Made by a program: the position numbers and the translations under genes
The notes under the pieces: model-generated
Told to the model about the DNA's origin: nothing
What the model saw: the letters and a program-made list of their open reading frames with translations, nothing else
The model's database searches: none
Assembly (NCBI RefSeq): GCF_006345805.1
Contig: NC_043010.1
Coordinates: 45,260,001 to 45,324,000, forward strand
Reading direction: 5' to 3'
DNA length: 64,000 nucleotides
From: Octopus sinensis
Taxonomy: Eukaryota
Shown: positions 2,261 through 62,510 of the stretch, piece after piece
How the letters are laid out: each line of letters begins with the position of its first letter
Position numbering within the stretch: the stretch's first letter is position 1

Positions 2261-2491
2261 TATTTCTTTATTACCTACAAGGGGCTAAACACAGAGGGGA
2301 CAAACAAGGACAGACATAGGTATTAAGTCGATTACATCGACCCAGTGCGTAACTGGTACTTAATTTATCGACCCCGAAAGGATGAAAGGCAAAGTCGACC
2401 TCGGCGGAATTTGAACTCAGAACGTAACGACAGACGAAATACGGCTACGCATTTCGCCCGGCGTGCTAACGTTTCTGCCAGCTCGCCGCCT
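2261..2491 (-). mobile_element. SINE family A, young Tx1-type tail, full length with 14-bp TSD
   Basis: TSD ttacaacagaaacc at 2247-2260 and 2492-2505; tail ends aataaagaaata on the minus strand. Confidence 0.9.
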
Positions 2492-3066: not shown

Positions 3067-3165
3067 AGGACAATTTACTTCCATTTTTTTCTTACAACTG
3101 TAAACTCTTAATCCTAGTCCGTGCTTGATCATTTTTGCCAATTCCTACCCAGATCACTGCTAAAT

Positions 3166-3750
3166 ATTCTTTTCTGCACTAGGCATAAGGCCCGAAATTT
3201 TGGGGGAGGAGGCCAGTCGATTAGATCGCACCCAGTATGCAACTGGTACTTAATTTATCGACCCCGAAAGGATGAACGGCAAAGTCGACCTCGGCTGAAT
3301 TTGAACTCAGAACGTAACGGTAGACGAAATACCTATTTCTTTATTATCCACAAGGGGCTAAACACAGAGGGGACAAACAAGGACAGACACACGGATTAAG
3401 TCGATTACATCGACCCCAGTGTGTAACTGGTACTTAATTTATCGACCCCGAAAGGGAAAAAGGCAAAGTCGACCTCGGCGGAATTTGAACTCAGAACGTA
3501 GCGGCAGACGAAATACCTATTTCTTTACTACCCACAAGGGGCTAAACACAGAGGGGACAAACAAGGGCAGACACGCGGATTAAGTCGATTACATCGACCC
3601 CAGTGTGTAACTGGTACTTAATTTATCGACCCCGAAAGGATGAAAGGCAAAGTCGACCTCTGCGGAATTTGAACTCAGAACGTAACGGCAGACGAAGTAC
3701 GGCTACGCATTTCGCCCGGCGTGCTAACGTTTCTGCCAGCTCGCCGCCTT
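3166..3750 (-). mobile_element. Nested trimer of SINE family A
   Basis: One head followed by three bodies; two internal junctions read aa(g/t)aaagaaata|ggtatttcgtct on the minus strand (about 3333 and 3517). Confidence 0.9.
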
Positions 3751-4360
3751 AGATCGCTGCTAAATATTGATGGAACTGATAAAAAGCAGAATCCGACAGA
3801 CTAACAAACTCAAAGTGCATATTATAACATTTCTAAACTTGTTAGCGCACACACATAGACACAAACGCAAAACAGCAAGGAACATTGATTCTTATTGATC
3901 AAATTAAGCAGTGTCAATCAATTTTGATGACGTTTCGGTTCTGTGATACAAGTTAACTATTTTCAGACTGCGAAACATATCTAAGACAACTGAATAAAAT
4001 TTAATGAGATATTATATATATATATTTTTTTGTTTCTACTTTTATGTAATCCGTTGTGTGTATTATTTTTCCACTAAAAATTTAATGACAGCGAGGCAAT
4101 TAACAAAGAAAATAAATACGCCATCAAAGAGAACTGTCAGAAAGCGAGCAAGGGAGCTAATAATGGAGAGAGGAAATGCATAAAGACGGAGAAAGCGGGG
4201 TGGTGAGATATGTCATGTGACAAGAGAGGTATCGAAAATTGGCGACAAGGGAATGGGAAAACAATGTTAAAGAACTGGGCAGCGAGAAATATGAAAAGAG
4301 AGCGTGGAAAACTAAGCAAATGAATGATAGAAAGCATGCAAAGAGAAAATACAATTGACA

Positions 4361-14895: not shown

Positions 14896-16150
14896 TTGGG
14901 TCGGCAACTAAGTTCCCCCCGTTTTTTAAATTTTGGAATCTATTTTTTTCGGAAATTCTATTTTTGAATCATTTTGGAATCTTTTTTTTTTCTAGTTAAT
15001 TTTAGTTAATTTTTGTTCATTTCCAGATAATTAAAATGGAATGTTAAGTTAAGAAAAATGAGCATTTTCGACACCTCCTTCATTTTGCTTTTAATCAAGG
15101 TTCTAAGGCCGCAAAAGCTGCTCGCGACAGCGACATTTGTGTTGTGTATGGAGAGAGTGCTATAGCTGAAAGAACCGCTCGTGATTCGTATGCCAAGTTC
15201 AAAAATGGAAATTTTGACCTCAAAGACGCGCCTCGTTCAGGACGTCCAGTTGAATTCGATGAAGAGCGATTAAACCAACTTTTGCACAAAAATTCTCGTC
15301 AAACGACAAGGGAACTGGCAGAGAAAATTGAATGCTCCCGCACTGCTATAGAGAAGCATCTTCACTCGATGGGAAAAGTTCAGAAGCATGGGTTTCGCAT
15401 GCTTTAAGTGACAACAACAAAAATCAACGAGCCACAATCTCCGCTGATTTGCTTGCTCGTCACCGCACAACTCACGAACACAAGCAACGATTACTTTACC
15501 GAATCGCTACTGGCGACGAAAAATGGTGCCTGTATATCAATATGAAGCAGCGTAAGGAATGGCTTAGCCCCGGTAAACAAGCGACATCACGCGTGAATCA
15601 AGATCTTCATTCACGTAAAACGATGTTGTGCCTATGGTGGGACTGGGAAGGGATTATCCATTGCGAATTGCTTGAACGGAACCAAACGGTCAACGCGGAA
15701 CTCTGTTTAACAGATGGAACGACTCAATACGGCTATTCAAGAGAAGACCTAATCGGCAGCATGGCGTTCTACTACACGACAACGCCCGATTTCATATCGC
15801 TAATATGACCAAGGAAGGCATTCAAACGCATGGCTGGGAAGTGCTGCCACACCCGCCATACTCTCCTGATTTGGTACCAACAGATTTCCACCTCTTTCGA
15901 TCTCTTTCAAATGTTATGCGCGGAGTTTCGTTCAATACTGATGCAGAATTGAGAGCTTGGTTAGATCAATTTTTCGAGTCGAAATCGGGTGATTTCTACC
16001 AATGAGGTATTGGAAATCTTGTTGAACGTTGGGAAGAAGTTCTAAACAACAAGAGTGAATGCATTATTGAGTAATTAGTTGTTATTTTTTATTAAACCTT
16101 TTAAAACATTTCAATTTAAAAAAACAGCGGGAACTTAGTTCCCAACCCAA
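14896..16150 (+). mobile_element. Full-length mariner (DD34D) transposon, decayed
   Basis: TIRs of about 37 bp (ttgggtcggcaactaagttcc... / ...ggaacttagttcccaacccaa), TA on both flanks, 1255 bp. Confidence 0.97.
15036..16074 (+). pseudogene. Mariner transposase pseudogene
   Basis: MEC*VKKNEHFRHLL..., RSGRP, WVSHAL, TGDEKW, HDNAR, HPPYSPDLVPTDFHLF; several frameshifts and stops. Confidence 0.95.
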
Positions 16151-32739: not shown

Positions 32740-33560
32740 ACACACACGCGCGCGCACATGAACACACACAGACACAAAGACTTATCTTCTTTCTGGTGGA
32801 TAACTCATAATAGACCCCACTTTTCTTCATACCATGATATATGTAAACACAAGAGAGGATGATGTGATTTCAGCATAAACAGATTCGTGTAGGTAAAAGA
32901 TTGTGCTAGAGAATAGTGATCTAACTTTGTGGTTTAGACATATATGCAAGACACAAGATACGATTTTAACGGATACTTCTATCCACAGCACGTAATGGCA
33001 GACGAAATACGACTACGCATTTCGCCCGGCGCGCTAACGTTTCTGCCAGCTCGCCGCCTTCAGACAGAAAGGTATTGAAAGAGAGAACGAGTGAAGGAGA
33101 CCGACAAATACACTTTTCACACACACACACACCCACACACACACAACCACACACACACACATACACACACACAACACACACACACGCGCGCGCACATGAA
33201 CACACACAGACACAAAGACTTATCTTCTTTCTGGTGGATAACTCATAATAGACCCCACTTTTCTTCATACCATGATATATGTAAACACAAGAGAGGATGA
33301 TGTGATTTCAGCATAAACAGATTCGTGTAGGTAAAAGATTGTGCTAGAGAATAGTGATCTAACTTTGTGGTTTAGACATATATGCAAGACACAAGATACG
33401 ATTTTAACGGATACTTCTATCCACAGCACGTAATGGCAGACGAAATACGACTACGCATTTCGCCCGGCGCGCTAACGTTTCTGCCAGCTCGCCGCCTTCA
33501 GACAGAAAGGTATTGAAAGAGAGAACGAGTGAAGGAGACCGACAAATACACTTTTCACAC
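32740..33560. repeat. Tandem duplication, 438-bp period
   Basis: Identical non-repetitive sequence at offset 438, bounded by (CA)n. Confidence 0.95.
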
Positions 33561-37166: not shown

Positions 37167-38692
37167 CCCTCTGTTTCTGCGTTTCTCATTTTGTCTCTCT
37201 TTCTCTACCCTCCCAGACACGCGTTCTATTTCTCCCTTTGTATATCTGTGTGTGCGCGCGTGTATGCGTGTGTGAGTATGTCTGCGTGTAGTTTGTAAGT
37301 AGTTGTGTGCATGTATGTGTATGCAATAGACATACATTCGCACAAATCTTAAGTACACATAAAAATCTATGAATCTACGAGGTTTTATCTAGTTTGGATA
37401 GACTTAATAAGAGTAGAAGCTAAATTCTCCTTTAAACCACACGTTACACTCTTATCTTTATTTGTACAATTGATCCTCCCGGGAGATTCACAAGTTGGTA
37501 GATAGATATGTTACAATTAACAGCCAAATCTTCCTCAGACCGTCGAATACGTTTGTTGCAAGTAGCCATTTTGAAATAAGGCGCCAATTGGTGGTAGCTG
37601 GCAATATGACATAATGTCGTATTGCCGAAGAATTATTATTGTCGTTTTTTTCCATTGGTTAATATAACTGCTCATATAAGGATTCTAAAAAGTTACATAA
37701 AGAATATATGTAATGGATTTCGATTCTTTTAAGTCAAGTTGAGCAGTTATAAAAATCCTGGATTTGGGGGGAAAACTTTAGTGTTTGCTGGGTGTAACTA
37801 AACTCCACGACACTCACTCCTTTGAGACATTGGTGATTTTCATGCCATGTCCAAAAGAAATCCGACAAGTCTTATTTGAATTGTTGTGATTCATTATTAG
37901 TTAGATTTATGAATTAGCTAGTGAAATATATAGTTGTACTTCTACACGACGAAAATTATCTTTTCTTTCACATGTACATAATATAAAATGTTATATTTAT
38001 ATAATAAAACTAATTAAGAAAATGTTTTCTCTTCACGTTTTTCAACTGTGTATAAATAAATATGCATTTCTGTAATCATTAATAGCGGTTAAATGAACAC
38101 GAAGATAATATTATGCATACATGACGCTAATATTCTTAGCGTTACATAAGTAGATTTCTCTATGGCGTTATATACTGTAGTTCGGATTTGCGTATAATGA
38201 TAACATTTAAGTTATAAGTGACGTTTTAATCATTATATACACCCTTACTTAAAAAGCCAAATAAAATAATCTATTTCCCAATAGGAAACACAATAAATAG
38301 CATTACATTACTAGAGAATTTACTATAATAATTACAAAACTAGAGAATTTACTATAATAATATAATAATATAACCTAAGAGAAAGCTCATGGTAGCCTAA
38401 AACCGCCTATACTTTCATTTTCATATGTGGTTACAGGAATCCCTCGCTTTACGAAAATAATAGTTCCTGAAAATCTGGTGGTAATGAAAAATTCCGTGAT
38501 GCGAAATTGATATTACTCTTGATTTTCATGTTATAAAGTGAGATTGCATTCCTACGGACTTTTTCAAAAAATATATATAAAAACAAGAAAAAAAAGGAAG
38601 CACAAGGAAACTACAGAGAACAAGCAACGCGATCAATTTATGTATGAAAATAACCTTTCCTAAACTTACGCAGTGTAATATAGATATATAAA

Positions 38693-38925
38693 AAGGCAGC
38701 GAGCTGGCAGAAACGTTAGCACGTCGGGCGAAATGCTTAGCGGTATTTCGTTTGCCGTTACGTTCTGAGTTCAAATTCCGCCGAGGTCGACTTTGTCTTT
38801 CATCCTTTCGGGGTCGATAAATTACGTGCCAGTTACGCACTGGGGTCGATGTAATCGACATAGTCCCTTTGTATGTCCTTGTTTGTCCCCTCTATGTTTA
38901 GCCCCTTGTGGGCAATAAAGAAATA
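38693..38925 (+). mobile_element. SINE family A, Tx1-type tail, inserted in a SINE head (site A)
   Basis: Junction aataaagaaata|agaaacgttaacacgccgg. Confidence 0.9.
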
Positions 38926-39159
38926 AGAAACGTTAACACGCCGGACGAAATGCTTTGAGGTATTTCGTCTGTGTGAGTTTGGATTTATTGGTAATTATTA
39001 TTGGAGTGCGTCTGTATAGTAAGTGCAAGTTTTTATTGACTGTTTTTGTGACATTTCCAGTTATAATTATTGTTCTTGTTATAATTATTTGTGTGATAGT
39101 CTTCGTTCGAAAACTATCGTGTGTTTTCCCCTGTGGGGGAAACATTAATTGCTGGCAAG

Positions 39160-40532
39160 ATGTCGAAAAGTGTAACTTCGTCTGGCGAAGAGTCGTTAAC
39201 CGACAGGAAGGCAACAAAGATAGAAAGTTTAATATTTGGCGATATTTCGGATTCTTCTGAAAGGGAATTTCACCAACCATCAATGTGTATTGTTGTAAAG
39301 AAGAATATTGACGTGAAAAGCCTTCAAACAGAAGAAAATAACCAAAAAAGAAGTTTTGCGTCGGCGGCTGGAGGTGGAACCTGCCAGCTGTCGACAGACA
39401 AAAATGACCTGATAAAGTACGAAGATATGATAACAATTGAAGACGGTGTTGTGAAGGTTCAACCCCCGGAAGAACTATTAATGTTAGAAAAAAGAAAAAC
39501 AATTATTTAAAAATTTTACAGTCTAAAAGGAAAAAAAATTGTGCGAAGAGAAAGTTGAGAAATGCTTGAAACCCATCTGGCAGGATACCACATACCTAAT
39601 CAGAGGGAAGAAGTTTGGTACTATCAAAGTACGACTAAAAGATATAGAAACTGCACAAATGCACTCAGTTAAATCTTTAGAAACGGAGGACGTTGTTTTA
39701 ATTCCAGTATATATGGGAATGAGGACGTCAAAGATACGTATACGAAAGGTTCCACCTCAAGTCGACCCTATGTGATTGATAATATAGGAAGATAATATAA
39801 CAAAAAATATAAAAGAAAATATAACACAAAAAGTATAAAAAGGAAGATAATATAACACTCCTTCAGGCTACTGTCACAGAAAAGGCTTATTGGACCGGTA
39901 AAACGGTTCACCTCCTAATACAAGCAGAACAGTCAATTTTGGAACAGTTACTGGAGAAAATAGAAATTGGGGAGGAATTCCTTAACGTATTCGTCGAGGG
40001 GCGTAAGCTCCGATGTTTCCAATGTGGCCAGCTGGGCTATATAAAAAAAAACACTGTAGAGACGACGAGGAAGAATCCGATGGGGAGGAGGAGGAGGAGG
40101 AGATAGGGAGAGAAACAGAAGAAAAGAAAGCAACTAACAACAAGAGAAAAATGGAAAGCTCAAATCAACCAAAACAGGTCGAACTAAGACCAAAAAAGGA
40201 ATACTGCGAAAAGAGACAAACCAAAAATAGTAAGGAAGGAAGCAGAAGACAGAGGGATAGTCGCGTTATACAGCAAAAATGAAGATTTAATGAGAGAAAT
40301 AAAAGCGAAAAGATCAGCCGCTAGGATTGCAGAACTTTCTGATAAATATAAGCACTATGAGTTCTACGAAATGGATGAAAAGACTCATAATGTATTACTT
40401 AACACGTATACTCGTAGAAAGTCGGTGTCGATGATGAGATTGGATTTAATCAATCCATTTTTCAAGACTTGCCACCTCCGAACCCTTCAAGAAAAGGTGG
40501 AGAGTCCCTTTCCGCAGGACACCCCGGATTAA
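39160..40532 (+). pseudogene. Tx1 ORF1 (gag-like), disrupted
   Basis: LIPVYMG...IRIRKVPP; VFVEGRKLRCFQCGQLGYIKK.C zinc knuckle at about 40012-40058; acidic and basic tail; frameshifts. Confidence 0.75.
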
Positions 40533-43500
40533 ATATGCGTAAATGTTCATGGCCTGATGTCTAGCTGGAAGCAAGGGCGCTTCCTAAATGACATCAGGTC
40601 AAGAACATTGGTTGTAATTGTTGCAACGGAAACTCAGGTGAAGGAGCCAAGAGATCTGCTCCCCTTCCTGAACGGCTATGAGAAATACGTTTCTCTGAGT
40701 CGGGCGGGAGGTGTTGGTGGGGTTTTGGTTCTACTAAAAAGAAACCAGGTAGCCGAGAAAAAGTTGTTGGTTTTTTTCTGATCCAGAAGGCAGGTTGGTC
40801 GTTCTCGACCTGACATTCAATTGTGGCAAGATAATCAGGCTGGTTGCAATGTATGCACCCAATGTTATGGGCTCGGAAAGTGAATATTTTCGTGACCTGT
40901 GCAAGTTCCTGGCCACGTCGCATTCGCTAGTATTGATAGGAGACTTTAATACAATCGATGACGCACACACAGATTGAGTTGGCTCGAACAGGAATAGAAA
41001 ATGTAACCCTGGCTTACGGGATCTGCTAAGTCACTTTCAGCTGGCAGATCCATATAGGATAGAACACCCGAACACTCCACAGTGGACGTGGTCAAATAGT
41101 GACGGGTCTTCCATAACATATCTAGATAGGGTTTTAATTAGAAAAACAGATATGTCCATAGCCAAGTGTTCACAGTTTTATCTAGTCAGCTACAGTTGTC
41201 ACAAGATGGTTACCTGTAAGCTGACAGTAGATAAGTTGCAGACAGGGATCTGGCTACTGAAAACTCAATACGTCCCTTTTGGCGATTGAGGAGTACAAAA
41301 AGCAGATCGAGATGTTAATACAGAGGGCATTGACAGGTACCATCATTAATAACAAATGGTGGTACACCCTAAAAAGAGCCATAAAATATGAGTCTATTAG
41401 GTTTTGCATAAGTTAGATAAGAATAAGAGATGGTCTAGTTAAGGAACTAGAAGAAGCCTGGAGGACTGGCAATGCGGACCAAGTGAAGGTGAAGAGACTG
41501 GAGCTGAACCAGCATCTTGAAACCCAACACATGGGAAGTATTGCCAGAGCTAAGTTACGTGCGATGGGAAGTGAAGGAATTAAGGCTGCTGGATGGCCCC
41601 GAGTGGTGGAAGCTCGACAAGGAAATAGGTCTACTATTCGGTCTTTGACGAATCAAAATGGTGTCTTGGTAAACGAACCCGAGAAAATGTGTGAGGTACT
41701 TCGCCCAGCTGTTCGGGGGTGATGGCGGTCCTGATGGTCCTCGAGGACTTTCTTGCCGAGCTGCGTGCCTCTCGGGGTCGGATACTGAGTCTTGCGAAGG
41801 GCCGATCACGCCTGTGGAGGTAATGGAGGCTATGGCCGACTGTAAAGCGGGTAAGTCGCCGGGAATTGATGGTCTTCCGTACGAGCTGTATAAATGTATG
41901 CCAGACTTGTTCGGGCCCTACTGGATGATGTGCACGCGAACTGACAACAGAATGGGTTTATCCCCAGACCTGTGCGCCGAGGAGTAGTGACGTTGGTCAG
42001 AAAGGACCCGGACAAGAGGGACGTTTTAGATAACATCAGGCCCATCACTCTGTTAAACGCAGAAGTGAAGATTTAGGCCATGATCTTAGCAAAAAGGTTG
42101 GCGCGTGTCGCGAATTGTATAGTCGAGAAGGCACAGACATGTGCCATTGCAGACAGAACCATCCAGGATAATCTCTACCTTATTCACTATACCATAGAGA
42201 GGGTTGGTGATAAATCTGGCAAAGGTAGGGCATTGGTACATTTGGCCCAGTCTAAAGCTTTTGATAGGGTTGACCATCGATACCTGACGACTGTGCTTGC
42301 GCGGTTCGGCCTAGGTCTTGGCTTCCTCAGGTGGTTTATCACTTTGTATCACAAGATTGACTCGATAGTTCGGGTGAACGGTTTCCTTTCGAAGCCGTTC
42401 TGCATCAGGCGCTCGGTTCGTCAAGGATGTCCGCTCTCACCACTTTTGCATGTGGTGACTCTCGAAACCCTACTGCGAAGGTTGAGTGGCATCCCGAGAG
42501 AACTAGGTTTAGAGGAGTTTGTTACAGCTTATGCGGACGATATCACTATCAGCGTAACCACACTAGCAAACCCACGTGAAGTGGGTAAAGCTATTGAGGT
42601 TTATGAGACGGTGGCAGGAGCAAAGATTAACCGGGAAAAGTCAGTCGGCTTGCAACTCGGCACCTGGGTTGGCAAGTTGATGCCTTCAGACAGTGTTGTT
42701 GGGCGCTGGACAGAGGGACCGGTTAACTTGCTGGGAGTCTGGTTTGGACCAGGCCTCCAGATAGAGAAGAAATGGACGGAGGTTTCGAACAGGGTGGCTG
42801 CAGTTGTCAAGACCTGGTATTGGCGGTGGCTATCCTTAAAAGGGAAGGAGGAGGTGGCCAATATGTTTATCGCATCGGTCATTACCTACCGCCTGACAGT
42901 CGTGCCCTTTCCGGATTCATGGTTGATCAAGTTGGAGAGACAGCTCTTTCGCTTTTTGTGGGAGGGCAGGTTGCGACTTGTGAAACGCTCCGTCTGTTGT
43001 CAAAAGCCGTTAAAGGGAGGTTTAGGGATACATTGGTTAATGATGCGCAGGCATGCGTTGAGGTTGAGATATCTCTGGATTCTCCTGGCTGGTGAACGGA
43101 TGTGGTCTTCACTGGCCAAACAAAAGTTCCACGAGTTCAAAAATGTTTGCAAACAGGAAGCCTGGTGTTTTCGTAGACCGAGGTCGAGTGAATGACATAA
43201 AGAGTACCGTAAGGCCCTCCTGCTACTCCGGCGCTCGGGCAACGCCAGCGGTGGGGGCTCTACACGAATTTTAGATATTGGGTTGGTAGAGTCTGGATGT
43301 GACGATGGCCTGGAGGCGACTCTAGGTCTCGGGTTTATTCAACTGGATAGCCTGTTCCATTGTACATTCGGGTTGATAACGTTGGACAACTTCCAAAAGT
43401 CTTTGACCTGGCGATGTTACAGAGGTGCCTTGCCCGTTTGGGATAAGACATGGTAAACGTCAGTCTCCGACCTGTCCAAGATGCGGGGGAGACAGGGAAA

Positions 43501-43880
43501 CCGTCCCTCACGCTATTGTCCAGTGTCCGGAGATATCTGAAATGTGGGTTTAAGCTGAACACCTGTTGTCCGGCGAAGGAAGAGTACGGCTGTTGACTGA
43601 GTCAATTATAAAAATTGACCCACCGGAAGTTTTAACAAGCGAAGGTAAGGATTATTTTCTCACGGTTGTAGCAATAGAGAAAGAGGCACTATGGAAGACT
43701 AGGATAAAAGGGATTGAGACAGATAACTTTATCTCCGGCCACTATTTACGATTTTTTTTTTTTTTTACTTTTCATTTGGAAAGGAAGGTGTGGCTGGAGA
43801 AGAGGTCTCTGTCGGAGAGTATGTTCAAAAAGAGATGGAAACATGTTGCACAAGTGTTGTGCGTGCAAGGAACCGTGTGA
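40530..43880 (+). pseudogene. Tx1 ORF2 (APE endonuclease - RT - CCHC), disrupted
   Basis: VNVHGL, ATET, LIGDFN, WTW..YLDR; KSPGIDGLPYELY, RPITLLN, KAFDRVDH, RQGCPLSP, YADD; CPRCGGDRETVPHAIVQC. Confidence 0.93.
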
Positions 43881-44344
43881 ATAGGCTATAAAAGAAAAAC
43901 AAAAAAAGTACCAGCGATAGATCGGGGCTTGTGGGGTCGGAGCGTGGCCTCATCATCGCTACATTTGTGCTGTCTGTGTATTGTTAATTTCATTCGATTT
44001 TAAAAAAATTTTAACATAATTCTTATATTCATATTTTATGTAAAATCATAACATATTACTGATCCCAATCAGTTGTTTTGTCCATTTCTGTGTTTGGCCC
44101 CCTGTGGGCAATAAAGAAATTGGTATTTCGTCTGCTGCTACGTTCTGGGTTCAAATTGCGCCGATGTTGATTTTGCCTTTCGTCGTTTCGAAATTAAGTA
44201 CCAGCTGCGTACTGGGGTCGATCTAATCGACTAGCCCCTCCCCAAAATTTCGGGCCTTGTGCTTAGAGTAGAAAAGAATATAGGTACATAAAAACACAGA
44301 AGCATTTCAAGAGGAATAAGTTAGAGATAACTTATTATCGTAAC

Positions 44345-44500
44345 CATGGGCGGACCCAGGGGTTGCCTGAGGGGTACGTGCCCTACTCAAGAAAAGAAGT
44401 GCGCCTTTCTAAATAATGTTATTGAGCCCTTTTTCTCCTGGAATTGTATTCCCTTCTGACCTTGTGCCCTCCCTTCGAAAAATTCCAGGGACCGCGCCTG
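44345..44500. mobile_element. Short hAT-like MITE
   Basis: Imperfect TIRs catgggcggaccc / gggaccgcgcctg; flanks gtaac and gtaag. Confidence 0.45.
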
Positions 44501-46369: not shown

Positions 46370-47015
46370 TAAAGGCGTCGAGCTAGCAGAATCGTTAGTA
46401 CGCCGGGCGAAATGCTTAGCCGTATTTCGTCTGCCGTTACATTCTGAGTTCAAGTTCCGCAGAGGTCGACTTTGCCTTTCATCCTTAAGGATGAATTGTC
46501 CAGCGGTGGGGGGGGGGGTGAGCAAACGCAAAGACAAACAGTTACACACACATAGCTTCTTTCAGTTTCCGTCTATTAGATACTCTCAGAAGGTTTTGGT
46601 TGGTCTGGGCCTATTAGTAGAAGAAACTTGCCCAAGTGCCAGACAGTGGGATTGAACCTGGAACCATGTGGTTGGGAAGTAAACTTCTTACCACAAAGCC
46701 ACACCTGCACCTTTTAGTTCGGAAAAAAAAATTGGAGAAATGTTCTTGGTAGTGGTGCTTCTAAATCAAGACAGTGACAAATTAAGTACCAGTTATGCAC
46801 TGGGGTCGCTATAATCGACTTAATCCCTTTTGTCTGTCCTTGTTTGTCCCCTCTATGTTTTGCCCCTTGTGGGCAATAAAGAAATAAGAATCGTTAGTAC
46901 GCCGAACAAAATGCCTAGCAGCATTTCTTCCGTCTTTACGTTCTTAGTTCGAATTTCACCGAGGTCTATTTCACCTTTAATCCTTCCCAAGTCAATAAAA
47001 TAAGTACCAGTTGAG
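46370..47015 (+). mobile_element. SINE family A dimer (site A junction) interrupted by a 289-bp copied segment
   Basis: Junction aataaagaaata|agaatcgttagtacgcc at about 46886; insert at 46494-46782. Confidence 0.85.
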
Positions 47016-47544: not shown

Positions 47545-48405
47545 CATTTCTACTTCAGGCACAAGACCTGAAGTTTGAAAGAGGGGAAAATTCGATTGCA
47601 TTGACCCCAGCATGCAACTGGTATTTTTTCATTGACCCCGAAAAGAAAGCAAAGCAAAGAGGACCTTGGTACAATTTGAACTCAGAAGGTAAAGACAAAC
47701 AAAATACAGCTAAAGAATCTTTTGCTCGGTGGGCTTAACAATTCTGACAGCTCGCCGCCTTAATTGCGATTTTTAATATCTTTTGCATTATTGACAAAAA
47801 GCCTGAAATTTGGGTGGGGAGAGCCGAGTCGATTACATTGGTGCTTATTTCATAGACCCAGAAAAGATGAAAGTCAACGTAGGTGGAATTTGAACTCAAA
47901 ACATAAAGATTGAAGAAATACGGCAAAGCATTTTATCCGACGTGCTAAAGAATTGCCATTTTTAATATCGCCAACATCTGGTGAGCTGGCAGAAACGTTA
48001 GCAAGCCGGGCGAAATGCTTTGTGGTATTTCGTCCGCCGCTGCGTTCTGAGTTCAAATTCCGCCGAGGTCGACTTTACCTTTCATCCTTTCGGGGTCGAT
48101 AAATTAAGTACCAGTTACGCACTGGGGTCGATGTAATCGACTTAATCCCTTTGTCTGTCCTTGTTTGTCCCCTCTATGTTTAGCCCCTTGTGGGCAATAA
48201 AGAAATAAGAATCGTTAATACGCCGGGTAAAATACTTAGTGGCATTTCGTCCATCCTTAAGTTCTGAGTTCAAATTTCGCCGAGGTCAACTCTGCTTTTC
48301 ATCCACTCGGAGTTGATAAAATAAGTACCAGTTGAGTACTAGGGTCGATGTTATCGACTTACCCCCAACCCCGAACTTGCAGACCTTGTGTCAAAATTAG
48401 AAGCA
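47545..48405. mobile_element. SINE family A cluster: two minus-strand copies and a plus-strand dimer
   Basis: Site A junction at about 48207, aataaagaaata|agaatcgttaatacgccggg. Confidence 0.85.
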
Positions 48406-48519: not shown

Positions 48520-48900
48520 CTTTTATCTTTTACTTGCTTCAGTCAAGTGGCCATGCTGGGGCACCGCTTTGAAGGGTTTAAGTCGAACGAGTCGATCCCA
48601 GTTCTTAATGTTTTTAAAGGCAGGTACTTTTTTTATCGGTTTCTCTTTGCCGAACCGCTAAGTTTCGAGAACGTTAACAAACCACCAATTGTCCAGCGGT
48701 GGGGGGTGGGGTGAGCAAGCGCAGAGACAAAGAGTTACACACACATAGCTTCTTTCAGTTTCCGTCTATTAGATTCTCTCAGAAGGTTTTGGTTGGTCTG
48801 GGCCTATTAGTAGAAGAAACTTGCCCAAGTGCCAGACAGTGGGACTGAACCTGGAACCATGTGGTTGGGAAGTAAACTTCTTACCACAAAGCCACACCTG
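48520..48900 (-). mobile_element. SINE family B, diverged
   Basis: ttacttgcttcagtc...ttaccacaaagccacacct. Confidence 0.8.
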
Positions 48901-49064
48901 CACCTTTTAGTTCGGAAAAAAAAATTGGAGAAATGTTCTTGGTAGTGGTGCTTCTAAATCAAGACAGTGACAAATAATTTCGAAGGTGCGAAACAATTCA
49001 GCTTTAAGCATAATTGAGATTGAAAATATGACAACTTACGGTAAAACTCCTTTTGTATCTAACT

Positions 49065-49350
49065 TGCACTTTGTCAGCTACGACCACAACTGTTCCAGTT
49101 GATCCGATCAACGGAACAGCCAACTCGTGAAATTAACGTACAAGTTGCTGAGCGCTCCACAAACACGCGCACCCTTAACGTAGTGCTCAGGGAGATTCAG
49201 TGTGACATAGGATATAACAAGGCTGGCCCTTTGAAATACAAGTACAACTCATTTTTGCCAAATGTGTGGACTGGAACGACATAATATAAAGTGTCTTGCT
49301 CAAGACCACAATGCGCCGCCGGGATTCGAACTCACGACCTCGCGATCGGC
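49065..49350 (-). mobile_element. SINE family C variant (same type as 6603-6900)
   Basis: ttccagttgatccgatcaacggaacag...aagtgtcttgctcaagac. Confidence 0.8.
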
Positions 49351-49746
49351 ATTTCGTCTGTCTTTATGTTCGAAGTTCAAATTCTACCGAGCTCAACTTT
49401 GCCTTTCATCTTTTTTGGTGATCGATAAAATAAGTACCAGCCGAACAATAGGGTCGATATAATCAACTTAACCAATCCCCCAAAATTACTGTATTTGTGC
49501 CAAAATTTGAAACCATTATTATTTCAATTAAAACAATTCCAAAATTTATAATAACGCCAATGGGCTATGTGCATTTATATAGGTATCTGTGTGGAAAAGG
49601 AAATAAATGCATATATTAGTTAGTATGTTTCTAATATGCAAATATATGTCGTTCCTTTTTCTGCAATTGAGCATGTGATATACATTCGTGTACATATGTT
49701 TATTTCAAAAATCCCTGTTCTTTTTCTAATAATTATCACCCATAAC

Positions 49747-52734: not shown

Positions 52735-54010
52735 CGCTATCAATTATTTTATCTAACCCAAAAAGGATGAAAGGCAAAGTCGACCGCGGCAGTACTTGAA
52801 CACAAAATGCAAAACGGGATGCCATACTGCAAACCATTCCGTCCTGCGTGCAAACGATTCTGCCAGCTCGCCGCCTTAATAATTCTTTCTGCAAGGCGGC
52901 GAACTGGCAGAAACGTTAGCACGCCGGGCGAAATGCTTAGCAGTCTTTATGTTCAGAGTTCAAATTCAATCAAGGTCGACTTTGCCTTTCAGCCTTTCGG
53001 GATCGATAAAATAAGTACCAGTTGCATACTGGGGTCGATCTAATCGACTGGTCCCCTTCCCCAAAACCTCGGGCCTTGTGCCTAGAGTAGAAAAGAATAA
53101 TTCTTTCTGCTATAGGCACAAGGCCTGAAATTTGCGGGAAGGAGAAGCTAAATTACCTCAATGCCAATACTCAGCTGGTGCTTTTTTTTTATATCAACAC
53201 GAAAGGATAAAAGGCAAAGTTGACCTTATTGGAATTTGTACTCAGAATGTAAAAGTCTGAAGAAATTCCCCGAAGCTTCTTATCCGGCATGCTAACCCCT
53301 TTACCAGCTCGCCGCCCAAGTAATCCTTTTTATTATAGGCACAATACAATTTTTTTTTTGGAAGGGACGATAGGTCGACTACATCGATCCCGGTGCTCAA
53401 CTGGTGTTTATTCCGTCGACCCTGAAAGGATGAAAGGCAAAGTGAACTTCGGCGGAATTTGAACACAGAATGTAAAGCCGGAAGAAATGCCAGCTCGCCG
53501 CCTTAATAATAATTTTTTCAACAATAGACACGAGGCCTGAAATATTGGGGGAGAAGGACTGTCGATTATATCGACCACAATGGTACTTATTTTATCGACC
53601 CCGGAAGAGATGCAAGGCAAAGTAAACCTCGGCGGAATTTGAACTCAGAATGTAAAAACGGACGAAATGCCGCTAAATGTTACCGATTCTGCCAGCTCAC
53701 CATCCCAATAATAATATTTTCTACTATAGGCACAAGGCGGAATTTGAACTCAGAATGTAAAGACAGACGAAATACCTATTTCTTTACTACCCACAAGGGG
53801 CTATACACAGAGGGGACAAACAAGGACAGACAATCGAATTAAGTCGATTACATTGACCCCAGTGCGTAACTGGTACTTAATTTATCGACCCCGAAAGGAT
53901 GAAAGGTAAAGTCGACCTTGGCGGAATTTGAACTCAGAACGTAACGGCAGACGAAATACGGCTACGCATTTCGCCCGGCGTGCTAACGTTTCAGCCAGCT
54001 CGCCGCCTTA
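52735..54010. mobile_element. Dense cluster of about 7 SINE family A copies
   Basis: Repeated gaaaggcaaagt..acc..ggcggaatttgaact; site B junction at about 53776. Confidence 0.88.
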
Positions 54011-54349
54011 TAATTTGAGTTTCTCTCATGGTATCTACAGCAGTATTGTTGGTTCTAACAGAACATCCACGTTTAAATGGGGGTAAATTTTATCTCTTGA
54101 ATAGTGCCTCTATCTCTAATATATACTTATACATCTATGTAAATGTCTTTTACGAGAAAAAGAATGTCTTTCACATTGACGGTGTTTAGCTTGGTTAGTT
54201 AGGTGTAGCTAATATCTTATGCGCCGCAGAATTATTTTACCACGTAACCAAATATCATCTCTAACTATCAAAGCCTGATTGTAAATCATTGGCGATGAAT
54301 AGCAAGTTCAATTTATTCGCCTCCATGCACTTAATCAGATGTATCAAAG

Positions 54350-55750
54350 TAGAATTGCTAAAGCGCCGGGCAAAATACTTTGTTATAATTAGTTTCTCAT
54401 GTTCAAAGTTCAAATGCTGCCGAGGTCAACTTTTTTTTCTTCTGGAATCGATAAAATAAAGTACCAGACAAGTACTGCAGTCAATTTAATATTCTTAAAG
54501 CACCCCAGACGTGAATAGAACCATGATAATAGACTAAAGCTGTAATATATATTTGTATTACATTGGCTTCAAATTTTGACATAAGGTCAGCAATTTCGGG
54601 GGAGGGCGTAAGTCGATTACATCGACTCCAGTGCTGGTGCTTATTCCATCGATTCCGAAAGGATGAAAGGCAAAGTCGACCTCGGCAAAATTTGAACTTA
54701 GCACGTAAATCCAGACGAAATGTCGCTAAGCATTTTGTCCAGTGTGCTAACGATTCTGCCGATTCGCTGCCCTATTGGTGAGTATTATATTGATTTCAAA
54801 TTTTGGCATAAGGCCAGCAGTTTCGGGGGAGAGGTAGATCGAATACATCGATCCAAGTGCTCAACTGGTACTTATTTTATCGACCCCGAGAGGATGAAAG
54901 GTAAAATTGACCACGGTGGAATTTGAACTCAGAACGTAAAGATGGACGAAATGCTGCTAAGCATTTTGCCAGGTGCGGTAACGATTCTGCCAGCTCACTG
55001 CCTTATTGGTGAATATTATATTACAAACCACAGAAAGGCAGCAAACCAGCAGAAGCGATACTGCGTCTGGTATAATGCTTTGCGGCATCACCCGGTTCTT
55101 TACTTCCCGAGTTCAAATGTCGACGAAGTTGACTCTGCCTTTAATACTTTCGGAATCGGTAAAATAAGGACCAGTTGAGCACTAGAGATCGATACAATCG
55201 ACTTATTCCCACCATCCATAAAATTCTTGGCCTTTGCCAAAAATTTGAAAAAATATTACAAACCACAGAGGAGAAATGTACACCTGTTAAATTTGAAATT
55301 AGAATGGTAGGGATTAACAAGTGTAAGTCATTTAGTCTAGCATTTCTGATATATTTCCATGTCACACACCATTAATACTGGTTTGTTTTGACATTGCACA
55401 AAATAATTATAGTTCATGTGAAGGATATAGTGTGATGCGATATTGAGATCTTTTTCTGTCTCATTATAAGCACAGTAAAGGTTTCTCATTTTGACGCAAT
55501 ACTAACAAATTTGGCGAGAGGGTTTAGTTGATATCATCGACGCCAGTACTTGATTAGTACTTTATTTTATTGATTATGAAAGGATAAAAGGCAAGTTTGG
55601 CTTCGACAAAATTTGAACTCAGAAATATCCCTCGTGATCAACTATGCCTTTCTTCCAAGTAAACTACCAATCAAGCTCTGGCGTCGATGTCATCGGCTAA
55701 CCCCTTTCCCAATAAATTGTTGGCCTTTTGCTTAAATTAGAAGCCATTAT
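54350..55750. mobile_element. Cluster of older SINE family A copies
   Basis: Diverged copies at about 54350-54480, 54565-54770, 54795-55005, 55035-55250 and 55500-55740. Confidence 0.7.
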
Positions 55751-60460: not shown

Positions 60461-61419
60461 ACAATAAAAGAATACTAACGTCACGGTGTCTCGTAATTTT
60501 CGTTGATGTGCTTTTTCAATGTAGACATGGGAACTAAGATTTAGGATCGTGAAAGAAATGAAAGTGTTGAGTATTTCCCACTGATATTCCAAGAACATTA
60601 ACATTCAAACCCAAGAGCATTGACAGTGAAGAGGTTTGAAAACCGAAGTTGAGTCAAAAAATTTGTTCAGCAAGGGTTTTCCTATTATCAATGGGTGTTA
60701 TAATTGTCAAAAAAATGCTAGGTTACACACAGGATTGAGTCTCTCCACAAACACAACGAAACAACTACCACGAGTTTGAACATGTGGCCTTCTGTTTGAT
60801 ATGATGGGAATTAATTCTGTATGGGAAACCACAAAACCAGCTAAAGCTTCAAGGATGTTGTAATTAAACAAAGAATGAAGATGAAAAAAAAAAAAAGACA
60901 TGGAGTAAATGATGGAAATTTCAGTCTTCTATCCTCTTAATGTCCTTTGGTTGATTAGAATTATTTGAAATCCTCTTAAAGGCTTTAGATAATGAAATTA
61001 ATTTTTAAATTTTAAGATTTGAAAATATCTGCTGAAATATTAAAAGAAAAAATCATTCACAAGAATCATTCTGAGGAAACAAAATAATTAGAAGATCCCA
61101 TGGCCAAGTACTGCGCAACCAAATAAAATGTTTAAGTGAAGAAAGAAAAGTAATTTGACCTTCAAGCAATTTTTAAAGACTGGTTTAGAGGAATTTAAAG
61201 CAAAATTAGAATTATAAAAATAGCATAAAGAAAAGAAAAAAAAGAAAAGCCACATCGATGGTGAATTTTAAATTTGGTTGACTTCTATGACAATTATATT
61301 TTATATCAGCGACTGTAATCGACTAGTACCCTCCCCCAACATTTCAGGCTTTGTGCCTTTATAGAAAGGATTATTATTATTATTACAATTGTTATTATTA
61401 TTATTATTACTGTTATTAC

Positions 61420-61440
<21 letters not shown>

Positions 61441-61453
<13 letters not shown>

Positions 61454-61680
61454 GTTGTTGTTGTTTAGGTGGGAGCTGGCAGAATCGTTAGTACACCAGA
61501 CAAAATGCTTTGCGGCATTTCGTCCGTCGCTACGACCTGAGTTCAAATTCCACCGAGGTCTACTGTGCCTTTCATCCTTTCGGGGTCGATTAAATAAGTA
61601 CTAGTTGAACACTGGGGTCGATGTAATCGACTCATCCCCTTCCTTAAAAAAACTGCTGCCCTTGTGGCAAAATTTGAAAC

Positions 61681-61715
<35 letters not shown>

Positions 61716-61958
61716 TATTATTATTATTGTTGTTGTTGTTGTTTAGGTGGGAGCTGGCAGAATCGTTAGTACACCAGACAAAATGCTTTGCGGCATTTCG
61801 TCCGTCGCTACGACCTGAGTTCAAATTCCACCGAGGTCTACTGTGCCTTTCATCCTTTCGGGGTCGATTAAATAAGTACTAGTTGAACACTGGGGTCGAT
61901 GTAATCGACTCATCCCCTTCCTTAAAAAAACTGCTGCCCTTGTGGCAAAATTTGAAAC

Positions 61959-61990
<32 letters not shown>
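61441..61990 (+). repeat. Tandem duplication, 278-bp period, of a family A SINE between (ATT)n tracts
   Basis: Identical diagnostic variants at offset 278. Confidence 0.93.
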
Positions 61991-61991
<1 letters not shown>

Positions 61992-61997
61992 TAATAT

Positions 61998-62510
61998 TAA
62001 GGCGGCAAGCTGGAAGTGGGGTTAGCGCGATGGACGTAATGCTTAGCGGTATTTCGCCCGTCGCTACGACCTGAGTTCAAATTCCACCGAGGTCTACTAT
62101 GCCTTTCATCCTTTCGGGGTCGATTAAATAAGTACCAGTTACGCACTGGGGTCGATATAATCGACTTAATCCGTTTGTCTGTCCTTGTTTGTCCTCTCTG
62201 TGTTTATTTTTCATTCTTTCGGGGTCGATAGAAGAAGTACCAGTTGAACACTGGGGTCGGTGTAATCGATTCATCCCCTCCCCACCAAAGAAACTGCTGC
62301 CCATGTTGCAAAATTTGAAACTTTTACTATTACTATTGACGGAATCGTTAGCAGAAACGTTAGTAGAATCGTTGGCAGCATTTCGCTTGTCTCTATACCC
62401 TGAGTTCAAATTGCACTGTGGTCGACCTTGCCTATCATCCCTTCCTGGGTCGATAAGCATTTGAGCACTGGGGTTGATGTAATATATATATATCTTGTTC
62501 CAAAATTTGA
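61998..62510 (+). mobile_element. Further SINE family A copies and fragments
   Basis: Head, core and both tail types present. Confidence 0.75.

Follow-up and report, generated by a model that had tools for sequence, protein, structure and literature searches.

How do a LINE and several SINEs come to be joined to one and the same nucleotide of a SINE head? The question is raised by a 64,000-nucleotide stretch of the Octopus sinensis genome (NC_043010.1, positions 45,260,001 to 45,324,000 of the forward strand; hereafter the window). A model that read its letters alone had noticed three SINE tails on the minus strand, at about 3333, 3517 and 53776, followed directly by the same sequence at the same nucleotide as the 3′ junction of a Tx1 LINE at 44122. 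The original prediction held that serial use of this site had produced the SINE trimer at 3166–3750, and that a free-standing copy at 2261, with a target starting GGT, pointed to a shared endonuclease.

Results

Two SINEs with a common head

The window contains two short elements (46 and 43 BLAST pieces) that have head and body in common and differ in their tails. The 3′ end of the SINE-A tail is AATAAAGAAATA; that of the SINE-B tail is AGAAAAGAAT-like or ATT-rich. Head positions were numbered from the first A of the copy at 2492, and in this numbering site B is head position 50 and site A is head position 17. Tail A exists in two variants, T and C, distinguished at columns 203 and 222. A division into "young" and "old" tail variants was rejected, the distances from their own consensus being 2.9–4.1% and 1.8–9.3%. 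ARAGORN found no tRNA in the SINE head and Rfam gave no tRNA match; motifs resembling the A and B boxes of polymerase III promoters are visible at about 13–24 and 76–86 of the head.

One free-standing copy defines a target outside any SINE:

2261–2491, minus strand: free-standing SINE with tail A (T variant), flanked by a 14-bp target duplication

The duplication is perfect (2247–2260 and 2492–2505) and begins GGTTTCTGTT, that is, with GGT as had been stated. Beyond the GGT this target resembles site B if one gap is allowed.

Tail ends joined to a single base

An exact match to the tail end followed by GGTATTTCGTCT was found four times in the window, and none of 100 shuffles gave any:

3322–3342, minus strand: junction of tail and GGTATTTCGTCT
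3506–3526, minus strand: junction of tail and GGTATTTCGTCT
53765–53785, minus strand: junction of tail and GGTATTTCGTCT
44113–44133, plus strand: junction of tail and GGTATTTCGTCT

The three SINE tails end at 3334, 3518 and 53777, each then running into GGTATTTCGTCT, and the fourth junction is that of the LINE at 44122. All four enter the SINE head at the identical base, position 50, so the coincidence of SINE and LINE junctions that had been noticed is exact. Eleven tail ends were counted in the window (seven from a motif scan, three further ones and the LINE end; the copy at 61999–62206, which has no tail end, was excluded). Four of them lead to site B, three to site A and four to other DNA. 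With chance modelled on 67 site-B-like 13-mers on both strands, the probability of at least 4 of 11 tail ends at site B was 2.5e-11. When the trimer was counted once, the probability of at least 3 of 10 was 1.7e-8, and 4e-6 after multiplication by 232 possible positions.

Outside the trimer, the SINE-in-SINE case at site B consists of two parts:

53777–54009, minus strand: SINE with tail A (T variant) joined to site B, with no host 5′ stub upstream
53712–53776, minus strand: its host, a tail-B SINE that starts at position 50 and has lost about 100 internal bases

The four site-B hosts are a tail-A body (at 3517), a tail-B copy (3333), the deleted tail-B copy just listed (53776) and, at 44122, a tail-B copy of greater divergence. 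Between them 3–7 of the first 41 bases differ, as do their tails or deletions. One master dimer therefore cannot have yielded all four, and descent from such a dimer, against which the original prediction had been set, is contradicted. Several master dimers may nevertheless have given rise to the site-B junctions. In an account of this kind, a few targeted insertions would have created A+B dimers that were transcribed by polymerase III read-through and moved by the partner of SINE-B, most junctions being inherited. The composite at 53712–54009, which has neither a run of four T nor a terminator between tail and host, suits this account. The four different hosts imply at least three separate origins, however, and each master would still require a site-specific insertion. 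We consider the account distinctly unlikely.

A LINE at the same base, with the same tail

The fourth junction belongs to a LINE, whose parts are as follows:

38972–44121, plus strand: decayed LINE of L1/Tx1 type, with remnants of ORF1 and ORF2, stop codons and frameshifts
44073–44120, plus strand: 3′ tail of the LINE, homologous to SINE tail A
38959–38971, plus strand: 5′ copy of the 13 bp duplicated by the LINE (head positions 50–62), at the end of the host piece 38926–38971
44122–44281, plus strand: the host, a tail-B SINE that starts at position 50 with the 13-base 3′ copy of the LINE duplication

The ORF2 remnant includes an endonuclease, a reverse transcriptase and a C-terminal zinc motif. 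Pfam matched RVT_1 (E = 2e-20), zf-RVT (E = 1.5e-4) and Exo_endo_phos (E = 0.011), the latter two below the curated cut-off. Intact relatives align along ORF2 from 40774 to 43874 across several frameshifts; for one of them, P0003, the best match among solved structures was human L1 ORF2p (E = 2e-74). The best named protein match to the LINE was from Argonauta hians (53%). On sequence grounds, the endonuclease, reverse transcriptase and zinc motif assign the LINE to the L1/Tx1 group. In a reverse transcriptase tree of 26 rows, drawn with 25 of 120 listed hits, it grouped with protein P0001 and the Argonauta protein (support 100/99). Membership in the Tx1 clade is plausible, the tree having one row named TX1 and no L1-proper outgroup. 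ORF1 proteins of the Tx1 clade carry a CCHC zinc knuckle; the ORF1 remnant has a decayed zinc-knuckle-like motif of the C-x2-C kind at 39825–40103, a region that gave no Pfam match.

The last 48 bases of the LINE match tail A in 41–42 of 48 columns, a score reached by none of 2000 shuffles. Of the two columns that distinguish the tail variants, 203 has the T-variant letter in the LINE and 222 the C-variant letter. Its target duplication is perfect (13 of 13) and comprises head positions 50–62, and the host 5′ piece is retained upstream; the LINE was therefore inserted in place at site B, which argues against inheritance of all junctions from moving dimers. Around 38693–44281, at a B 3′ end, an 18-bp duplication matches at 16 of 18 positions, as movement of a composite by the SINE-B partner would leave it. 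In age the LINE precedes the SINE insertions, and the window holds one copy of it; both points, like the mixed letters of its tail, weigh against the reading favoured below. A common 3′ tail, the same target base and similar duplication lengths (13 bp for the LINE, 14 bp for the free T-variant SINE) mark SINE-A and the LINE as a putative partner pair. For a target-specific Tx1 family, Kojima's criterion, as given in the accessible text of PMC4494074, is that more than 20% of flanks lie in one repeat.

Recurrence in public sequences

Window positions 38600–44400 were compared with public sequences in 4 of 24 listed runs. In run X1 (273,758 contigs placed), 578 contigs, a count without denominator among the rows listed, had loose letters before 38742, which is site B; their consensus was a T-variant tail (agreement 0.65). 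The six rows listed for run X3 contained no tail/site-B row. The 15 joints listed included neither tail-to-site-B joints nor LINE flanks.

Run X22 had 295 reads placed of 12.9 million, and 32 of these consisted of a tail, head positions 50–62 with one letter changed, and a 5′-truncated tail. The 13-base spacer agrees in register and length with the LINE duplication, as would be expected for a truncated SINE inserted at the same two cuts. At 38874, 14 reads of X22 showed a tail, an 18-base spacer starting GGAAT and another truncated tail, and the spacer is possibly a second target of GG(T/A) type. Tail-to-head joints were also present in the public contigs, 51 in X1 and 40 in X3. The raw reads of X21 yielded nothing informative. 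A pattern scan gave one match each in metagenome and genome collections, both due to chance and confined to the pattern, and none in the viral collection.

Tail variants and their targets

The two variants of tail A differ in where they are found. Targets of T-variant SINEs start with GGT in four of four cases, three of them at site B; targets of C-variant SINEs do so in none of six, and three of the six are at site A. Grouped by column 203, elements with G (four SINEs and the LINE) have GGT targets in 5/5 cases and those with A in 0/6 (Fisher p = 0.002), a grouping that was chosen after seeing the data and that includes two junctions within one trimer. The simplest reading of the split would be two sister LINEs with different cut preferences.

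Three composites are joined at site A:

38693–38925, plus strand: SINE with tail A (C variant) joined to site A of the LINE's host
46372–47015, plus strand: site-A composite with an in-register 5′ join, its host having no B tail
47980–48400, plus strand: SINE with tail A (C variant) leading to position 17 of a diverged tail-B host

In the composite at 46372, 18 identical bases lie on both sides (46388 and 46887); they include two host-type letters, after which the letters are insert-type. Since the host at 46887 lacks a B tail, and with it the means to move, this composite was formed in place by an in-register join, which again speaks against dimers carried by the SINE-B partner. The identical runs in the other two composites measure 10 and 4 bases; the one at 47980 has insert-type letters upstream and the one at 38693 is uninformative. 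The SINE at 46372 is also interrupted by a stretch of about 290 bases (46487–46775) that recurs nearly unchanged about 2.2 kb downstream (48689–48975).

A hairpin at the target

Site B lies at the loop edge of a hairpin in the head, shown here on the free-standing copy:

2431–2460, minus strand: 13-bp head hairpin (33–45 with 50–62)

Positions 33–45 pair with 50–62 in the inner stem around a four-base loop. Site B is the first base 3′ of the loop, and the 13 bases duplicated by the LINE are the 3′ arm. As RNA the head folds into a long hairpin, with z = −3.6 for the copy at 2261; four further heads gave −1.2 to −3.1, and the fold of one of these is different. Across 17 heads 90.5% of cells pair, compared with 36–54% when the partners are slid, a figure that favours the structure because it was taken from one of the 17 sequences scored. 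The covariation score was not above shuffles (240 of 500), and a single inherited double change was found. A DNA cruciform at site B was unsupported, with DNA folding at z −0.9 to +0.7; the position of site B at the loop edge may therefore be a coincidence. Nor was there support for a conserved stem in the common tail (z −0.5 to −1.7).

The double change replaces U45–G50 by G45–C50 in 4 of 17 heads, including all three intact T-variant heads. It removes the first G of the target and leaves the stem closed. All four site-B hosts have G50. A compensated change from G50 to C in the variant that targets GGT is possibly a form of self-immunity, although the numbers are small. A wider scheme can be built on it, in which the LINE endonuclease would cut the SINE's own head at the edge of the hairpin loop, insertions would convert the sister SINE in register and leave the resident as a promoter-less stump, the attacker would resist its own enzyme (G50 to C, T45 to G), and two variants would use two sites. 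Taken as a whole, this scheme seems to us rather doubtful.

The trimer

The trimer and its flanks are made up as follows:

3518–3750, minus strand: unit 1, a complete SINE whose tail is A (T variant) and whose head is G45/C50
3334–3517, minus strand: unit 2, a head from position 50 with tail A (T variant), beginning GGT
3166–3333, minus strand: unit 3, a tail-B SINE from position 50 to the 3′ end
3751–3768, minus strand: upstream copy of the 18-bp duplication of the trimer, matching at 17 of 18 positions
3151–3168, minus strand: downstream copy of this duplication, overlapping the last 3 bases of unit 3

The period of the trimer is 184 and its composition is mixed (A full, A from 50, B from 50). 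A check proposed along with the original prediction, whether multimers share target duplications as a unit, had a clear outcome: one 18-bp duplication, at a B 3′ end, encloses the whole trimer, and 3 of 1500 random pairs scored as high as its 17/18. Duplications around unit 1 alone or around units 1 and 2 scored at background, and none of the SINE-in-SINE cases of the window has kept a separate host 5′ stub. The claim of serial use was thus upheld in part. The trimer is real and has its regular period; one duplication for all three units and the missing stub leave serial insertion short of proof. These two features would result from in-register merging with the host head, from later movement of a read-through composite or from template switching. 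We judge formation by serial insertion in place evenly balanced against its rivals, which are composite movement, template switching and local duplication.

Movement of a preformed composite gains from several features of this locus, namely the single duplications here and around 38693–44281, both at a B 3′ end, the similar age of the three units, and the letters of the upstream heads. The full heads at site B (those ending at 3750 and 54009) are of insert type, G45 and C50, and not of host type, T45 and G50. Merging in place must therefore have overwritten host letters to a point upstream of position 45. Unit 2 contains the trimer's single run of five T, which stands against read-through of a composite, though it may postdate the insertion. 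The single duplication would be equally expected from composite movement and from a template switch.

In the latter case reverse transcription would start on SINE-B RNA, stall or meet a break at the hairpin loop (position 50) and resume at the 3′ end of SINE-A RNA; a trimer would take two such jumps. This would account for the single duplication, the missing host stub and the insert-type head together, and position 50 does lie at the loop edge of a conserved hairpin. A tail-B copy at 49348 likewise has position 50 as its first base and is not preceded by an A tail, and chimeras in Magnaporthe, as far as the available text describes them (PMC2104539), provide a precedent. Jumping between RNAs leaves unexplained why the LINE has a DNA-level duplication at the same base and why the free copy has a GGT target. 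It also gives no reason for the pairing of T-variant tails with position 50 (3/3) and C-variant tails with position 17 (3/3), since under this model it is the first template, and not the second, that should determine the site. We hold it to be very unlikely.

For the middle unit a further explanation, specific to the trimer, is a local 184-bp duplication, for which the homologous heads of an A+B dimer would have slipped or undergone unequal exchange. Among 12 aligned tails the letters at columns 145 and 178 are common to units 1 and 2 and to no others, and these two units are the closest T-variant pair, differing at 8 of 167 columns where other pairs differ at 9–13. A local duplication would begin with the host GGT, as unit 2 does. 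Against it, column 224 is G in unit 1, in the copy at 53777 and in the X1 junction consensus, and A in unit 2; the head of unit 2 has none of the private letters of unit 1 or unit 3; and the margin of 8 differences to 9–13 is small. Such a duplication is conceivable but somewhat unlikely. The host-type GGT of unit 2, followed by a T-variant body, fits a second insertion by way of a 13-base overhang, and for this origin of the middle unit the prospects seem to us about equal. That the unit came from a preformed composite or a template jump is less probable than a local duplication.

Other rearranged copies

Several further copies in the window are rearranged. At 53319–53504 (minus strand) a copy lacks the stretch between site A and site B, and the ends of this deletion have a short GGC match. 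The tail-B copy at 52893–53102 (plus strand) has an 11-bp deletion whose right edge is the end of the site-B duplication window, possibly the scar of cutting without insertion; this copy lies in reverse orientation within another B copy's tail and has a 14-bp duplication. At 49290–49520 the tail-B copy that begins exactly at site B (49348) abuts an opposite-strand tRNA-like head, with no 5′ piece of a host visible upstream. Neither hot spot is involved in the chimera at 61999–62283 (plus strand), where a tail-A copy cut at 207 is joined to a tail-B body at about 106. Tail-B copies form clusters at 53100–55200 and 61300–62460, head-to-tail or inverted, with ATT-rich runs between them. At 32986–33498 (minus strand) there is a 438-bp tandem duplication, each copy with a G45/C50 head cut off at 75. 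An open frame of 158 residues at 15332–15808 (plus strand) reads like what we take to be a mariner transposase fragment.

Discussion

A proposed mechanism

The best reading of these data, and one that we think probable from the sequence comparisons, is an endonuclease that SINE-A and the LINE share as partners. Of the original prediction on this point, the shared targeting stands: the junctions fall on the same base, the tail is common, the LINE has its 13-bp duplication, the hosts differ and the joint recurs in 578 public contigs, and one site-A composite shows an in-register join. What we infer is the enzyme itself, the merging of heads at site B and the order in which the trimer was assembled.

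SINE-A would be the non-autonomous partner of an L1/Tx1-type LINE family with which it has its 3′ tail in common. The LINE endonuclease would nick the bottom strand just before GGT(A/T)T, where reverse transcription would be primed, and the top strand would be cut about 13–14 bases downstream of the nick. The commonest good match in the genome would be position 50 of the head common to SINE-A and SINE-B. Insertion of the LINE, which is not homologous to this host, would leave a 13-bp duplication with the 5′ piece of the host still in place. The head of the host does have homology to a SINE cDNA, whose end could therefore pair in register with the upstream target, and the heads would merge; the product would resemble one full SINE followed by a host starting at position 50. 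Repeated insertion at the regenerated GGT site would add further 184-bp units. The second tail variant, presumably by way of a sister LINE, would follow the same process at position 17.

Homology between RNA and target could also have fixed the site. A read-through RNA, from dimers or from a LINE at site B, would carry the target behind its tail and pair with the nicked DNA. The composite at 53712–54009 has no terminator between tail and host, and the likeness of the free copy's target to site B extends past the GGT. For R2Ol, the accessible account reports that downstream target sequence on the RNA raises efficiency and accuracy (PMC6795142). A nick at or near the site would still be needed, and the first insertions would go unexplained. 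Guiding by RNA can be combined with enzyme preference and is therefore not a full alternative; as the sole determinant it is the least probable of the explanations that we weighed, and pairing of this kind may act beside the shared endonuclease.

Relation to known systems

The closest system in the literature is that of the crocodilian SINEU and Tx1-Mar LINEs, for which the available text describes common sites within Mariner-N4_AMi and two hot spots used by different families, and in which tandem SINEU-3 copies sandwich the target duplication and are read as sequential insertions (Kojima 2015, PMC4494074). There, as here, a SINE and Tx1 LINEs have common preferred sites in a dispersed repeat. 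The crocodilian target, as described there, is an unrelated Mariner DNA transposon, whereas the octopod target is the head of the SINE itself and of its sister SINE; because insert and target are homologous in the octopod case, the 5′ junction can merge in register. The octopod partnership additionally rests on a common 3′ tail.

Tx1L in Tx1D of Xenopus and Keno in U2 snRNA genes (PMC4494074, PMC4640811), as presented in the text available from these sources, resemble the octopod LINE in that an AP-type endonuclease LINE occupies a fixed base of a multicopy sequence. They differ in their target, and octopod specificity appears loose, with the free SINE at 2261 in a non-SINE GGT; one LINE copy was examined. 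A link between site B and the U2 target of Keno was weighed and set aside, as no common register emerged. For R1A of the Drosophila melanogaster group and for R2, annealing of the cDNA to upstream target DNA has been proposed to give a seamless 5′ junction, and the ancestral R1 duplication is 14 bp (both from the accessible text of PMC2718515). In Phytophthora, Utopia insertions in U2 genes are missing the 5′ part of the target gene that would be expected beside them (PMC4640811). These elements, in the same accounts, are autonomous, lie in rRNA or snRNA genes and owe their homology to a co-transcribed flank, whereas in octopods the homology is with the SINE's own head. The chimeric retrogenes of Magnaporthe include a tripartite element under one 14-bp repeat, with recurrent switch sites near hairpins (PMC2104539, accessible sections). 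Like the octopod composites they have two or three RNA-derived parts, one terminal repeat and junctions near hairpins. Those sections describe no DNA-level insertion at the same base, while the octopod site is marked by a LINE with its duplication.

Octopus SINEs have long been known, and PMC4758252 cites, in its available text, Ohshima and Okada 1994 for OK, OR1 and OR2; these are octopod SINE families, as SINE-A and SINE-B are. Exchange of SINE tails is likewise known, and one head with different tails fits what the accessible part of PMC5786205 reports. The openly searchable literature, which leaves aside Repbase and subscription journals, gave no account of this system in octopods or of any SINE that is aimed at the head of its own family, and an earlier description is possible. 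A SINE and a Tx1 partner that share a target are thus already known from crocodilians; the literature searched does not describe the SINE's own head as a target.

If the process is general, insertions would hide as seamless chimeras and would distort octopod SINE copy counts, ages and family numbers. In one annotation of O. vulgaris, SINEs make up 11.6% of the genome and 893 young SINE families are unclassified (PMC13282606); chimeras might inflate the latter number. Generality would also mean thousands of natural junctions between cDNA and target, and the 5′-joining step of LINE insertion would become testable from a single assembly.
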